DNA of 8,808 nucleotides from a virus (lineage: Duplodnaviria; Heunggongvirae; Uroviricota; Caudoviricetes). A program made the translations under genes and the position numbers. Below, piece after piece: positions 1,261-5,371 of the stretch. The notes under the pieces are model-generated. The model was given only the letters and a program-made list of their open reading frames with translations, was not told the DNA's origin and did not search any database. Positions within the stretch are counted from its first letter, which is position 1. Every line of letters begins with the position of its first letter. The stretch lies in the IMG/VR virus record IMGVR_UViG_2706794492_000011; one strand, 5' to 3'.

Positions 1261-1656
1261 TCACAATACCGCCTCCTGAAAATTGCCCTGATAGAACGCC
1301 AGTACACGCAGCATAACTTCACTCTTCCGGCACTCGCCACAGATTATGTTCTGTTGTCTGTCGTAGCGGCGTATTTCTCCGTCTGGTAACTTTCGAATCA
1401 ATGTCTGGTCGGTTGTTTTCTCCGCTGCCTTACGCCATACGCGATACACCTGTTCTGATGTAAAAACACCGTATTTACCGGGCATGTATAAATCGCCGCA
1501 AGCCAGTACATCCACAAGGCAACGTCTGACTGAATGCCAGCCTGCTCCCGTCGCTCTCTCCAGTTGTGATATCGTCATGCGTTCATTTTTGCGTACCAGC
1601 CCGATAATTCGGGCCTTCAGTTCTTCACGCTGTTCGTGTGTAAAAGGTTTCGCCAT
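1261..1656 (-). CDS. hypothetical winged-helix (HTH) protein
   Basis: ORF 1261-1671; preferred start is ATG at 1656 (MAKPFTHEQ...) preceded by GGAGG with 5-nt spacing. The GGAGG sits between the upstream gene stop (1672-1674) and this start. Contains an HTH-like segment MTISQLERATGAGWHSVRRCLVDVL. Confidence 0.6.
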   Translation of the reverse strand: MAKPFTHEQREELKARIIGLVRKNERMTISQLERATGAGWHSVRRCLVDVLACGDLYMPGKYGVFTSEQVYRVWRKAAEKTTDQTLIRKLPDGEIRRYDRQQNIICGECRKSEVMLRVLAFYQGNFQEAVL

Positions 1657-1671
1657 AAGCGCCTCCGGCAA

Positions 1672-2442
1672 TCACTTTTCCGACACAATACGACCGGATG
1701 AATCGACAATCTGCCGAACAATATCCCGGTGCTTGTTCAGCTCCCGCAGCGCGGCGCAGACACGCTCCCACTTCTGAACCTGACCTTTTGCCCGGCGCAG
1801 CTCGCGGTTAGCCACATGCAGCGATGGTAAAATCAGACCATCCGGATGTTTTCTGGTGAACAACGGCTGTGACTGCACTGTGACCGCCACAGTTTCTGTT
1901 TTATTTTCTTCCTGTGTTGCGGCTTCCCGGACTGGTAACGCAGCACCTGCTGGCTGAGGAAAGGCCTTACCATCACTTTCCGTTACCAGCGCGGCTTTCG
2001 GCTCTGCTGGTAAATTATCGCCCGGCATGCAGTAACGAAATTTACCGTTCTGATTAACGCGTGCCAGCCGCCCCGTTGCGGTTACCACCGCCAGCGCGGA
2101 AGCAACCTTGCGAGTACTGACACCGAACTTACCCGCCAGTTCCTCACACGTTTTAGCCCCATCCTGACCGATAAACTCAATCATCATGTCTGCGGTAACT
2201 TTTTGTTCGACCTCCCTGGTCAGCATATCCTGTGCTTCAGATTTTACTGGCCGCTCTTCGGTTACCCCGGATTCACCTTCGCCAGCCAGAAACCAGGTGT
2301 GACCCGTTTTATCAACAACGCTATTTTTTTTGAGTTCCCACAGTTCGTTGAGAACTTCTTCACGGCTGATATCAAGCCGCGCCGCCAGTTCAACAGAATT
2401 GGCTTTACCCATCGCTTTCAGTGCATGCAATACGGTTTCCAT
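1672..2442 (-). CDS. hypothetical protein with two winged-helix-like modules separated by acidic and Pro/Ala-rich linkers
   Basis: 256-aa ORF; ATG at 2442 preceded by GGAGG (minus-strand context GGAGGAAATTTTA-ATG). Two HTH-like segments (NSVELAARLDISREEVLNELWEL and KTCEELAGKFGVSTRKVASALAVV). Directly downstream of the DnaC-like gene. Confidence 0.7.
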   Translation of the reverse strand: METVLHALKAMGKANSVELAARLDISREEVLNELWELKKNSVVDKTGHTWFLAGEGESGVTEERPVKSEAQDMLTREVEQKVTADMMIEFIGQDGAKTCEELAGKFGVSTRKVASALAVVTATGRLARVNQNGKFRYCMPGDNLPAEPKAALVTESDGKAFPQPAGAALPVREAATQEENKTETVAVTVQSQPLFTRKHPDGLILPSLHVANRELRRAKGQVQKWERVCAALRELNKHRDIVRQIVDSSGRIVSEK

Positions 2443-2471: not shown

Positions 2472-3212
2472 TCAGTTCCTGTGCTGGCTGACGTTCGGAC
2501 GCCAGCTCTCCCAGTTAAACGTCACCCAGCGACCTCCGTTCATGGACATGCGGTCCATCACCCGCTCGCCGAGAAGTGTATTCATCGCTGCATGATTAAG
2601 ATTTGTCAGCATCCCCACACTGAGTAACGATGCCGTTCTGCGGTCAACAATCTGATTAAGCGTGACCTGCTCATTACGCGTATCCCGCTGCATGCCAATT
2701 TCATCCAGGACCAGCAAATCCACCCCGCAAAGCTCCTGTAAAAATTTTTCACCTGATTTGCCGTTGTCGTAACTGTCGTGCAACACACTCATGACATCAG
2801 ACACAGTGATGATAATTACGCTGCGCCCCTTCTCCATCAGCCGATTGCCTATCGCCGCCGCCAGGTGGTTTTTTCCTGTGCCAGGCCGGCCACTGAACAC
2901 AAAATTCGTACAGCCGCCTTCCAGCTCTGCCGCAATGGATTTCGCCTGACTCAGGGCATGGCGCTGACCAGCGTTCTGCACCCGGTAGTTACAGAACGTA
3001 CACTTCCGGTGAAGCGGCTGGATACCGGAGCGGTTAATGATTTTTTCAACCCGCGTCTGATGATTCAGACGATTAACCTCCTCGCTTCGCTTACGCCCTT
3101 CAGCAAGCTGCCATTCCCGCCACTCCGCCACCGTACGGTACGGAGGGATTGCATCCTGCGGCACAAATCTGCTGATTCTTGCCAGAACACCACCTGACGT
3201 AATGTTTTTCAT
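2472..3212 (-). CDS. prophage DnaC-like replicative helicase loader (IstB-like AAA+ ATPase)
   Basis: 246-aa product with Walker A GRPGTGKNHLAAAIG and Walker B LLVLDEIG; collinear similarity along its length to E. coli DnaC as recalled (…NRSGIQPLH…CTFCNYRV…IVDRR…GMLTNLN…LGERVMDRM…). Lies 6 nt downstream of the initiator gene. Confidence 0.9.
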   Translation of the reverse strand: MKNITSGGVLARISRFVPQDAIPPYRTVAEWREWQLAEGRKRSEEVNRLNHQTRVEKIINRSGIQPLHRKCTFCNYRVQNAGQRHALSQAKSIAAELEGGCTNFVFSGRPGTGKNHLAAAIGNRLMEKGRSVIIITVSDVMSVLHDSYDNGKSGEKFLQELCGVDLLVLDEIGMQRDTRNEQVTLNQIVDRRTASLLSVGMLTNLNHAAMNTLLGERVMDRMSMNGGRWVTFNWESWRPNVSQHRN

Positions 3213-3218
3213 GATGCG

Positions 3219-4187
3219 CTACCCCCTGAACCCCGGCGGAATTTCGGTATCCGGTTCAGAAATATGATTCACGCAACGCTGCGCGGGCGAACGCCCCAGG
3301 CGAATAACCAGCTCATCCCATTTTTCCCGGAGTTTTGCCGGACTCATGATGTTTTTTACCCAGAACGAATCCCGTTGAACACGCCCAAACATTTCACAAA
3401 TCTGTCGGTGACTACGTCCATCCAGCATACGCATCATGCGCACATCATTCGCCCAGGTCGTCCAGTTAGGCTCTCTGGGGCGTGATACCTCCCCATCATC
3501 ACTGGCGGCCTGTTCATACAACGCAACAACCCGTCCCCAGATCCACTGTGCACACGTCAAATCCTCCCGGGTTCCCCACTGTCGCTTCGGTACATTCCAG
3601 GTATGCGCATCCGGGTGTTTCTCCAGAAATCGCTCAACTGGTGATGATTGTTTTTCGTCCGGCAGTGAAACGTCCGGACAAGAAGATCTTTTATCTGACG
3701 GATCAGGTTTTAATACTGACGGATCGGGGTCAATCATCGCCCCCCTAATCCGCAGTTTTTTATCAACAGTTGATCCATCAACATTTGACGGGCCAACCGT
3801 TGAGGGGGCAATATTTGACGGGTCATTTTTTGCCTGGCTAATTTTTCTTTTTGGTTTATATGCCTCACGCGCCGCCGCTGCAGCTGCTTCAAGTTTTTCC
3901 ACATTAAGCCGATAGATATTGCTTACGTTACGCCCACCGACCTTACGCTCTTCCTTCGTCAGCCAGCCCTCTTTCGCCAGTTCTGCAATAGCCGATTTCA
4001 CTGTGGATTCACTTCTTGCACCGATCTGACGCCGGATAGTTTCAATGGCAGGCCATGACACGCCCTCGTCATTGCTGTAGTCTGCAAGACGGGCCATAAC
4101 CGCCACCCTGGATAAGATCATGCCGGTGAAGGCGCACCCTTCCCAGACAAGACCATGAAGCTTGCTGCTCATAAAACCCCCGAACAC
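3219..4187 (-). CDS. phage replication initiator (lambda O-like / DnaT-like C-terminus): N-terminal winged helix, DPS-repeat linker, C-terminal domain
   Basis: 322-aa ORF; start is GTG at 4187 or ATG at 4172 (MSSKLHGLVW...). N-terminal HTH-like segment LSRVAVMARLADYSNDEGVSWPAIETIRRQIGARSESTVKSAIAELAKEGWL; linker with repeated DPS/PS motifs; position immediately upstream of the DnaC-like gene. Confidence 0.75.
   Translation of the reverse strand: MFGGFMSSKLHGLVWEGCAFTGMILSRVAVMARLADYSNDEGVSWPAIETIRRQIGARSESTVKSAIAELAKEGWLTKEERKVGGRNVSNIYRLNVEKLEAAAAAAREAYKPKRKISQAKNDPSNIAPSTVGPSNVDGSTVDKKLRIRGAMIDPDPSVLKPDPSDKRSSCPDVSLPDEKQSSPVERFLEKHPDAHTWNVPKRQWGTREDLTCAQWIWGRVVALYEQAASDDGEVSRPREPNWTTWANDVRMMRMLDGRSHRQICEMFGRVQRDSFWVKNIMSPAKLREKWDELVIRLGRSPAQRCVNHISEPDTEIPPGFRG
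3695..3860. repeat. putative replication origin: four 10-bp iteron-like direct repeats plus AT-rich tract, inside the initiator gene
   Basis: CTGACGGATC at 3695-3704 and 3716-3725 (21-bp spacing); TTGACGGGCC at 3785-3794 and TTGACGGGTC at 3815-3824 (30-bp spacing); palindrome TCAACAGTTGA about 3763-3773; AT-rich stretch about 3826-3860 (TTTTTTGCCTGGCTAATTTTTCTTTTTGGTTTATAT). Matches the lambda-type arrangement of ori within the O gene linker. Confidence 0.45.
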
Positions 4188-4194
4188 CGTGCTT

Positions 4195-4620
4195 TTAGTG
4201 CATCACCACAGCATTCCCTGCCGGGCCGCCGCGATTCATCTGGTCATACAAAACAACCGCTGACGCAACAAAATCATCGACATCCTTCACCAGCCGATCC
4301 CTCCGTTCGACGATCTCACGGTAATATTCAGAACTGTGGCTGCGCATACGGGCCACCAGCAAAGGCGGCATCGCCTTTTCGATCGCCGGTAACAGAGCCT
4401 GCATTTTTTCAACAGCATCAGGGGTGTCTTTCTCTACCCAGCGGAAAATTTTCTGGGTATTGCGAGCCAGGGCTTCCGGATGGCTGTCGTCATACAGTTC
4501 TGGGAACGTCATACCCAACTCAAAATAAGCCTGGGTTATTCCAGCTGCTGGAACTTTTTCGCCATCAGGACGCGCCCAGGCATTCATCGCCATGCGGATG
4601 TGTTCATGCTTGATTTTCAT
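4195..4620 (-). CDS. ydaT: YdaT-family protein (Rac-prophage YdaT-like; reported as toxin or CII-like regulator)
   Basis: 141-aa ORF beginning MKIKHEHI..., ATG at 4620 with GGAG about 7 nt upstream; overlaps the upstream YdaS-like gene by 17 nt; position (Cro-like, YdaT, replication genes) as in Rac. Confidence 0.7.
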   Translation of the reverse strand: MKIKHEHIRMAMNAWARPDGEKVPAAGITQAYFELGMTFPELYDDSHPEALARNTQKIFRWVEKDTPDAVEKMQALLPAIEKAMPPLLVARMRSHSSEYYREIVERRDRLVKDVDDFVASAVVLYDQMNRGGPAGNAVVMH

Positions 4621-4879
4621 GAATCAACTCCGGTGTATTTTGTGTGTTAGCCTTATCTCCAGCAGGCAACCCGTCGGTTGGATTCGGATATAAATCTGGT
4701 CGCAATTCATGAGGAGTCACCCCAGTTGCAATATAAATTTGACGAACCCGCTCCCCTGTCGGCACTCGACCATTGTATTCATTTGCCCATTTGTGTATTT
4801 GAGACGGCCAAGCCCCTATTGCACGCCCTAGCGGACGAATACCACCAGCAATCTTTATTGCCTTGTCCAATGCTGTCAT
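4604..4879 (-). CDS. ydaS: Cro-like HTH regulator, YdaS family
   Basis: 91-aa ORF MTALDKAIKIAGGIRPLGRAIGAWPSQIHKWANEY...; GGAGG 4 nt upstream of ATG at 4879; first gene of the leftward operon, divergent from the repressor gene. Confidence 0.7.
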   Translation of the reverse strand: MTALDKAIKIAGGIRPLGRAIGAWPSQIHKWANEYNGRVPTGERVRQIYIATGVTPHELRPDLYPNPTDGLPAGDKANTQNTPELIHENQA

Positions 4880-4946: not shown

Positions 4947-4984
4947 ATTGTTAGTGTTCACTGAACGGTTATAATTGCTAAATG
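4947..4984 (+). promoter_or_regulatory. putative repressor-maintenance (PRM-like) promoter: -10 TATAAT at 4970-4975 about 7 nt before the repressor ATG; adjacent palindrome GTTCACTGAAC (4955-4965)
   Basis: Perfect TATAAT hexamer ending 6 nt before ATG 4982 with no Shine-Dalgarno in between, implying a leaderless mRNA. Weak -35 TTGTTA at 4948-4953. Shares the TGTTCAC half-site with the operator. Confidence 0.4.
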
Positions 4985-5371
4985 GACATGAGAAAAAAGC
5001 AATACGACACCCCGCTGGCAGAAAGGTTAGATACGATCTCGCAACAGCATCATTTAAGCGGTTCAGATTTAGCGCGCATCGCTGGTGTAGGACGCTCATC
5101 AGTCAACGCCTGGAAAAAAAGAGGGACAATCAGTAAAGATTCCGCAGCCAAAATTGCAGAAGCGACAAATGTTTCCCTTTCCTGGCTACTGACAGGAAAA
5201 GAAGATACAAACAGAGAGGCGCTTGATGATGATGAGAAAGCCCTGCTTGATGTTTACAGAAACCTGCCACCTGTAGAGCGTAGAAATATGCTGGCAGCTT
5301 TTCAAATGCGCCTTCAAAAACTGACCGAATTTTACTCAGAATACGTTGACCCAATAACGCGACAAAAATAA
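4982..5371 (+). CDS. dicA: XRE-family phage repressor (DicA/RacR-like): N-terminal HTH plus C-terminal helical domain
   Basis: 129-aa ORF with HTH segment LSGSDLARIAGVGRSSVNAWKK; divergent from the Cro-like gene; followed by terminator and the dicF-dicB arm as in Qin. The symbol is by analogy and recalled similarity, not a database hit. Confidence 0.75.
   Translation: MDMRKKQYDTPLAERLDTISQQHHLSGSDLARIAGVGRSSVNAWKKRGTISKDSAAKIAEATNVSLSWLLTGKEDTNREALDDDEKALLDVYRNLPPVERRNMLAAFQMRLQKLTEFYSEYVDPITRQK

Follow-up and report, generated by a model that had tools for sequence, protein, structure and literature searches.

A candidate replication origin in the linker-coding part of the initiator gene of an Escherichia coli lambdoid prophage

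Introduction

The replication initiator gene of a lambdoid prophage of Escherichia coli contains, in the part that codes for the linker between its two domains, a cluster of short repeats. Are these repeats a DNA element at which replication starts, or are they a codon-level effect of a repeated peptide? We address this question in a stretch of 8,808 nucleotides (hereafter the window) from virus record IMGVR_UViG_2706794492_000011, which matches, with 100% identity, a lambdoid (Rac/Qin-like) prophage in the chromosome of E. coli FORC_042. From comparative evidence, we estimate a probability of roughly three in four that positions ~3659-3834 constitute the cis-acting replication origin of this prophage, lying inside its own initiator gene. 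A preliminary description of the window had proposed origin-type repeats in the linker-coding part of an O-like gene, and the proposal is supported indirectly by three observations: the linker is conserved as DNA, the initiator ends in a lambda O-like C-terminal domain (C-domain), and the repeats occupy the position of the lambda iterons.

The origin of phage lambda consists of imperfect 19-base-pair (bp) inverted-repeat iterons bound by O dimers, together with an AT-rich region, in the middle of gene O (PMC7466680). In lambda and in the Shiga toxin (Stx) phages 933W and P27, the origin lies in the initiator gene linker that joins the DNA-binding N-terminal domain (N-domain) to the loader-binding C-domain, and the candidate origin is placed likewise. 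The initiator described here belongs to an HTH_36-type family, for which no mapped origin was found in the literature searched.

Results

Linker repeats form a tandem array of dyads

Every element listed in the preliminary description is present where it had been placed. On the plus strand, CTGACGGATC occurs at 3695-3704 and 3716-3725, 21 bp apart; TTGACGGGCC (3784-3793) and TTGACGGGTC (3814-3823) are 30 bp apart; and the palindrome TCAACAGTTGA lies at 3763-3773. The feature as first noted (3695-3860) falls within codons 105-160 of the minus-strand gene, in a low-complexity linker rich in P, S, D and K, and the repeats do code for its DPS motifs (D117-P-S, A122-P-S, G127-P-S, D132-G-S, D150-P-S and D157-P-S). 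They had been read as two pairs of 10-bp repeats. Those sequences exist, but the real unit is a dyad array with a 15-bp period and 4-5 copies, and the 30-bp pair and the palindrome are parts of this single tandem array.

The array sites (candidate iterons; Table 1) are near-palindromic, 11-13 bp long and of the form (G/A)TCAA-N3-TTGA(C/T), one being formed at each unit boundary. Four are well formed (3762-3774, 3777-3789, 3792-3804 and 3807-3819), and a weak one lies at 3822-3834. Read in the coding frame, the units are GAC CCG TCA AAT ATT (3824-3810), GCC CCC TCA ACG GTT (3809-3795), GGC CCG TCA AAT GTT (3794-3780) and GAT GGA TCA ACT GTT (3779-3765), followed by a decayed, degenerate fifth (3764-3750). 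A repeat search returned 4 copies at 15-bp spacing, and Tandem Repeats Finder reported a period of 15 with a score of 53. The pattern GTCAANNNTTGAC, with up to 2 mismatches allowed, matches at 3762, 3777, 3792, 3807 and 3822, in exact 15-bp phase. Such a phased run of 5 was obtained in 0 of 2000 first-order Markov simulations of the window, where the longest run was 2 (in 4 of the 2000), and no second cluster of the dyad motif exists elsewhere in the window.

A spacer of ~20 bp separates the array from an isolated degenerate dyad site (3729-3741), whose counterpart in Erwinia and Edwardsiella relatives is an intact GTCAATGGTTGAC; the two GATCCGTCAG copies follow. All of these candidate sites (3762-3834 and 3695-3741) fall within codons 117-160 of the 317-codon gene. 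The density of GATC, with 4 occurrences in 3685-3775, is not significant by itself, being equalled in 12% of simulations.

The linker is conserved better as DNA than as protein

The repeats might do no more than mirror, at the DNA level, a disordered linker of repeated DPSxx peptides; slippage would then keep them alike, and they would have no function in cis. Their in-frame period of five residues, the P/S/D/K-rich, low-complexity composition of the linker and the change of copy number in steps of one 15-bp unit, or five codons (E. coli has 4 or 5 units, the family 3-9), are all in keeping with this explanation. To see whether the repeats are a mere codon-level effect of such a peptide, we compared 81 homologues spread over many genera of Enterobacterales. 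Scanning one genome per species gave 80 loci with a homologous N-domain (the genera sampled include those of E. coli, Erwinia, Edwardsiella, Morganella, Klebsiella, Yersinia, Proteus, Rahnella and others), and phage records (SfIV, a Klebsiella phage, phiNP and LLS) were added. Every homologue carries a 15-bp array of 3-9 units and, after it, a conserved block with GATCC(G/A)TCAG sites. Two types of unit were found. Type A, to which the window belongs, has the unit GAC-CCS-TCA-AMN-RTT and comprises 11 homologues (E. coli, Erwinia, Mixta, Morganella and Edwardsiella); type B, the SfIV-like and larger branch with 70 loci, has GAC-GCR-TCA-AAA-TCT.

The fraction of the major codon at conserved residues was then compared between the folded domains and the linker with a Mann-Whitney test. 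It was 0.62 in the domains and 0.92 in the linker for type A (7 diverse sequences; p = 2.5e-9), and 0.53 and 0.93, respectively, for type B (41 non-redundant sequences; p = 5.6e-13). Synonymous sites are essentially randomised in the folded domains and nearly fixed in the linker of the same genes. This pattern speaks against an origin of the repeats in the peptide, as slippage would homogenise repeats within a genome but would not hold the same codons in at least 40 diverged lineages. Recent exchange of linkers among all these lineages would have left the variable unit positions almost identical too; instead, 141-161 distinct type-B units are present. No consistent use of rare codons explains the codon choice.

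Logos built from 58 type-A and 336 type-B units gave the same picture at single codons. The unit Ser codon is TCA in 35/35 type-A and 296/336 type-B cases, compared with 12-16% elsewhere in the same genes, and the other unit codons are as uniform (Val GTT 25/25, Ile ATT 24/24, Lys AAA 237/237). In codon 3 of the type-A unit the third base is A in 57 of 58 units while the residue may be S, P, L or A, and in codon 1 the second base varies freely (D, A, G or N). In several linker columns of type B, conservation is 100% for the third base but only 57-87% for the residue, and the differences between E. coli alleles within the array are mostly non-synonymous. Because third bases are fixed where residues vary and linker codons are nearly fixed, we reject the peptide-only explanation, to which we give almost no credence.

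The conservation of DNA reaches beyond the array, from ~3824 to ~3659, and is strongest at 3752-3663. The GATCCGTCAG codons GAT-CCG-TCA are invariant in 7/7 diverse type-A sequences and in 62-70 of the 70 type-B sequences, and two GATC sites of the block are invariant throughout the family. At the right-hand end of the block (3659-3694), third-base identity between genera is 0.8-1.0, and types A and B are nearly identical.

A lambda O-like C-domain is joined to a different N-domain

The initiator is composed of an N-terminal winged helix-turn-helix domain, the linker and a lambda O-like C-domain (Table 1), and its residues 1-317 match phrog_391 ('replication initiation O-like') over the full length (E = 4e-106). 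Residues 198-297 share 43% identity with residues 188-277 of lambda O (BLASTP, E = 1e-25), which establishes the homology of the C-domain. The N-domain, by contrast, matches HTH_36 at residues 25-71 (27.8 bits against a cut-off of 25) and is not that of lambda O: the window initiator gave no match to PF04492 (Phage_rep_O) at E up to 0.01, whereas lambda O itself scores 123 bits. Homology of the two N-domains was considered and rejected, as alignment of the N-domain profile with lambda O by hhalign yielded a probability of 0.1%. The N-domain is presumed to be the reader of the iterons.

The last 21 residues of the initiator (297-317; 3222-3284, minus strand) show a weak resemblance to the C-terminal tail of DnaT, a primosomal protein (NCBIfam NF002770, E = 0.0035; PDB 2ru8, 6aep and 9zbt, E = 0.01-0.03). 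This resemblance accounts for annotations as 'primosomal protein I', and the tail may be a docking peptide for the DnaB-DnaC complex.

Dyad symmetry and pairing of iterons with N-domains

In the type-A unit, information content is distributed symmetrically around position 12, with CAA at positions 8-10 and TTG at positions 14, 15 and 1, giving the dyad CAA-N3-TTG. Mirror symmetry of this kind is as expected of a site read by a dimer. The arm positions are complementary in 86-98% of type-A units, and type B retains the outer arms GTCA-N5-TGAC.

The N-domains form two clades, each with its own unit consensus; members of one type share an identity of at least 0.65, whereas identities across types do not exceed 0.67. 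A further combination occurs in the mEp460-type relatives (L007, L008 and L091). They have the same lambda O-like C-domain (~85% DNA identity over the last 369 nucleotides in L091) and the operon context of the window, with DnaC-like and DUF1627 genes downstream in L091. Their N-domain, however, is unrelated to that of the window and has no Pfam match. At the same position in the gene lie lambda-like iterons, in which a 23-bp palindrome, CATCGGGCCATTTTGACCTGATG, is repeated 5 times; 3-7 copies of an AT-rich unit of 12 bp come after them. We regard these repeats as a candidate second type of in-gene origin. Since the N-domain clades match the iteron types and mEp460 swaps both N-domain and iterons, the two are inherited together, and judging from this distribution they form a co-inherited specificity module, as in classical lambdoid phages. 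In type-B members such as phiNP and LLS, a Phg_2220_C domain stands in place of the lambda O-like C-domain; the N-domain plus repeat block is therefore found together with two or more kinds of C-domain.

The repeats lie where lambda has its iterons

Comparison with the origin regions of related lambdoid phages, which the preliminary description had recommended, places the repeats where the lambda iterons are annotated and beside a homologous C-domain. Annotation places the four lambda iterons in codons 117-145 of O, a short way upstream of the C-domain that the two proteins share, and the window array spans codons 117-141, so that both begin at codon 117. In both cases the sites are tandem imperfect inverted repeats, variable in copy number (4 in lambda, 6 in Stx phages, 3-9 in the window family), and the operon order of cro, cII-position gene, initiator and helicase loader is common to lambda and the window. 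The left half of the lambda iteron, CCCTCAAAA, is also found within type-B units, possibly by chance. The two systems differ in their N-domains (Phage_rep_O in lambda and HTH_36 in the window, with no similarity by hhalign) and in their sites, which measure 11-13 bp at a 15-bp period in the window but 18-19 bp at ~20-24 bp in lambda. After the iterons, lambda has a 40-bp AT-rich tract, whereas in the window this place is taken by the conserved block, with its short A-runs and two or three sites of the GATCCGTCAG type. Lambda has P as its loader and the window a DnaC-like protein, and some relatives have no loader gene. An alignment of the right arm of the lambda origin with the family block gave suggestive short matches only, which we did not use as evidence.

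In theta plasmids such as pPS10, F, R6K and RK2, iterons are read by winged-helix domains, and their copy number and arrangement matter for initiation and its control. The window array resembles these initiator-binding repeats in being a tandem series of candidate sites. The plasmid iterons, however, are direct repeats of 17-22 bp at ~22-bp spacing; they lie between genes, beside DnaA boxes and a clear AT-rich element, and Rep binds them as a monomer. A Pfam search of the window proteins gave no Rep_3-type domain. An iteron origin of the theta-plasmid (Rep_3 / RepA) type was rejected on the grounds of the 15-bp period, the dyads, the coding location and the missing Rep_3 match.

Candidate unwinding sites and a possible role in control

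The AT-rich tract of the preliminary description (3826-3860) is real, with a GC content of 0.325 over 3820-3859, and 3838-3867 is the least stable 30-bp window of the initiator gene (free energy, dG, -33.5). Its proposed role as an unwinding element is unsupported: the tract consists of Lys codons, is poorly conserved in type A (third-base identity just 0.60-0.75) and is absent from type B. It also lies on the promoter-proximal side of the array, while the AT-rich region of lambda comes after the iterons. Two other segments are better candidates. The segment at 3686-3715 (dG -34.2) is strongly conserved, and in 6 of 8 diverse family members no 30-mer anywhere in the gene is less stable than its equivalent. 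The segment at 3757-3786 (Table 1) contains an A-run opposite which MAFFT sets the AT-rich run of lambda, an alignment that is suggestive only; it may be the positional equivalent of the lambda AT-rich region and hence a candidate unwinding site. At 3685-3697 of the plus strand, GATCTTTTATCTG resembles the 13-mer consensus of E. coli oriC, GATCTnTTnTTTT, and it is unconserved in type B.

Could the sites bind the initiator for purposes of control (autoregulation, titration or handcuffing, incompatibility), with strand opening and helicase loading elsewhere in the prophage? Extra iterons have control roles in iteron plasmids. The same has been described for Stx phages (PMC7466680), and no strong unwinding element adjoins the window array, as a purely regulatory site would allow. 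On the other hand, the sites are positionally equivalent to the functional origin of lambda and lie beside a homologous C-domain, the DNA-conserved block continues for ~100 bp past the array to include the family-wide stability minimum, and the 8.8-kb window holds no other motif cluster. We consider a role confined to control unlikely.

Other functions of the conserved DNA

Conserved DNA inside a gene may also reflect another overlapping function, namely an antisense or alternative-frame gene, an mRNA structure, a binding array for another host or phage protein or a junction for modular recombination. An antisense open reading frame (ORF) of 159 residues (3436-3915, plus strand) does span the linker, and its frame is uninterrupted in the window as well as in 6 of 8 type-A relatives. 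It is closed in type B and has no Pfam match, and no alternative frame is open in both types. This ORF is unlikely to be a gene. On the mRNA strand, 3660-3830 forms a more stable fold than its shuffled counterparts (minimum free energy -54.9 kcal/mol, z = -3.78; z = -1.5 for the plus strand), forming a long hairpin in which the dyad units pair with each other and with 3729-3744. The favourable fold arises because the dyads pair with each other, and a fixed RNA structure is hard to square with 3-9 copies of the unit. Nothing in Rfam matched either strand of 3300-4300 at E up to 1. A scan for promoters and terminators turned up a single weak terminator-like hairpin, as expected by chance, and nothing promoter-like. 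Finally, the block is situated at the boundary where phages exchange N- and C-domains, but recent recombination would not yield position-specific periodic conservation with variable positions in between. Taken as a whole, an overlapping function of any of these kinds seems to us quite improbable.

Genes around the candidate origin and distribution of the family

The candidate origin lies in an early operon on the minus strand, from which a CI-like repressor gene diverges (Table 1). The product of the gene directly downstream of the initiator matches Pfam IstB_IS21 and Bac_DnaA, phrog_50 ('DnaC-like helicase loader'), NCBIfam PRK12377 (479 bits, above the cut-off) and DnaC (E = 4e-90), and is presumed to be the partner of the initiator C-domain. 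Several relatives (loci L002, L004, L005, which is SfIV, L009 and L010) have no DnaC-like gene after the initiator, and presumably use the loader of the host. The two genes at 4195-4879 match the Pfam families 'YdaS_toxin' and 'YdaT_toxin', and one is named 'toxin YdaT family protein' in RefSeq; in the operon they take the place of early regulators.

Of 5426 complete E. coli genomes, 1855 carry homologous DNA. The family also occurs in isolated phages, among them Shigella SfII and SfIV, phiNP, phages of Klebsiella, Citrobacter and Yersinia, and the Stx2e phage phiP27. In many type-B phages, genes for adenine-N6 (Dam-type) methyltransferases directly follow the initiator (Table 1).

Two circular records in PLSDB contain members of the family. 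The first (L253, NZ_CP148542.1; 15,977 bp) holds no more than the immunity, replication and lysis region of a type-A prophage, with frameshifts in the initiator and ydaT; it may be a mini-replicon of the lambda-dv kind whose sequence contains errors, or else an artefact of assembly. The second (L254, NZ_CP084811.1; 44,270 bp) represents an entire lambdoid phage genome, structural genes and integrase included. Its sole recognisable replication gene is a type-B initiator, which is preceded by a small DUF4222 gene overlapping its start.

Table 1. Positions of the features in the window and in related loci
Feature	Locus	Positions	Strand	Basis or remark
Array of dyad sites, candidate iterons	Window	3762-3834	none	Repeat and pattern searches
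Isolated degenerate dyad site GTCAATCATCGCC	Window	3729-3741	none	Pattern search, MAFFT alignment, type-A codon table
Two GATCCGTCAG copies on the coding strand, 21 bp apart	Window	3695-3725	none	AT-rich spacer between them
Right-hand end of DNA-conserved block (AAA AGA TCT TCT TGT CCG GAC … GAC)	Window	3659-3694	minus	Third-base identity
Lys-rich A-tract segment YKPKRKISQAKN	Window	3826-3860	minus	AT-rich tract of the preliminary description
Low-stability segment …GTTGATAAAAA	Window	3757-3786	none	Promoter-distal array end; dG -34.4, 73% AT; third least stable window of the gene
Initiator gene, 317 residues	Window	3219-4172	minus	ATG at 4172; ORF listing and translation; same coding sequence annotated by RefSeq at the FORC_042 locus
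N-terminal winged-helix DNA-binding domain, codons 1-95	Window	3888-4172	minus	Pfam HTH_36; weak DnaD_N match
C-terminal domain, residues 198-297	Window	3282-3581	minus	Homologous to lambda O C-terminal domain
DnaC-like helicase-loader gene	Window	2472-3212	minus	Directly downstream of the initiator gene
DUF1627 gene	Window	1672-2442	minus	
DUF977 gene	Window	1261-1671	minus	
cII-position gene	Window	4195-4620	minus	Pfam YdaT
cro-position gene	Window	4604-4879	minus	Pfam YdaS
CI-like repressor gene	Window	4982-5371	plus	Divergent from the early operon
mEp460-type repeat region	L007	1699-1870		
mEp460-type repeat region	L091	1953-2158		
Adenine-N6 methyltransferase gene	L006	2675-3499		
Adenine-N6 methyltransferase gene	L008	2921-3574		
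Adenine-N6 methyltransferase gene	L009	2370-3251		
Adenine-N6 methyltransferase gene	L010	2352-3239		
Adenine-N6 methyltransferase gene	L254	10889-11779		

Discussion

If ~3659-3834 is the origin, its firing can be pictured as follows. Transcription of the early rightward operon (the cro-like and YdaT-like genes, the initiator and the DnaC-like gene) would supply the initiator. Its N-terminal winged-helix domain, probably as a dimer, would bind the 4-5 dyads (G/A)TCAA-N3-TTGA(C/T) at their 15-bp spacing, as well as the related CCGTCA-containing sites downstream. The resulting nucleoprotein complex would destabilise an adjacent stretch of low stability, for which 3686-3715 and 3757-3786 are the best candidates, and the lambda O-like C-domain would bring in DnaB by way of the phage DnaC-like loader. 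We infer binding by the initiator, the place of unwinding, recruitment of the loader and continued origin activity in this prophage.

Several points weigh against the assignment of an origin. Covariation between the arms of the dyad is weak, and the dyad symmetry rests mainly on the consensus. The centre-to-centre distance of 15 bp corresponds to ~1.4 helical turns, and the sites almost abut, compared with ~20-24 bp in lambda and ~22 bp in plasmid iterons. A long AT-rich element like the 40-bp tract of lambda is missing, and there are instead three modest segments (3838-3867, 3757-3786 and 3686-3715) of 67-73% AT. The codon test is uncalibrated on a proven origin, the lambda O relatives from IMG/VR being 99-100% identical and offering no power. 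The prophage is possibly defective, and the literature searched yielded no experimental evidence of binding or origin activity for any member of the family.

An origin inside the initiator gene is expected from lambda; the present candidate differs from that of lambda in belonging to an HTH_36-type initiator family and in its site geometry, with near-abutting sites at a 15-bp period. As a tentative and rather doubtful extension, the family might represent a distinct and very widespread class of enterobacterial phage origin, characterised by short dyads at a 15-bp period, in which the two family-invariant GATC sites in the opening region could couple firing to Dam methylation or SeqA. If the geometry is as proposed, dimers on adjacent sites would face almost opposite sides of the helix, and the origin complex would be unlike the lambda O-some.

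Conservation at the codon level can tell a cis-acting DNA element from a peptide repeat, which aids the annotation of origins inside genes and cautions against recoding or codon-optimising initiator genes of this kind. The N-domain and the iteron block can, on the comparison made here, be identified as a co-inherited specificity module of mosaic lambdoid phages, and the candidate sites would provide a testable origin map for the replication module carried by about a third of complete E. coli genomes.

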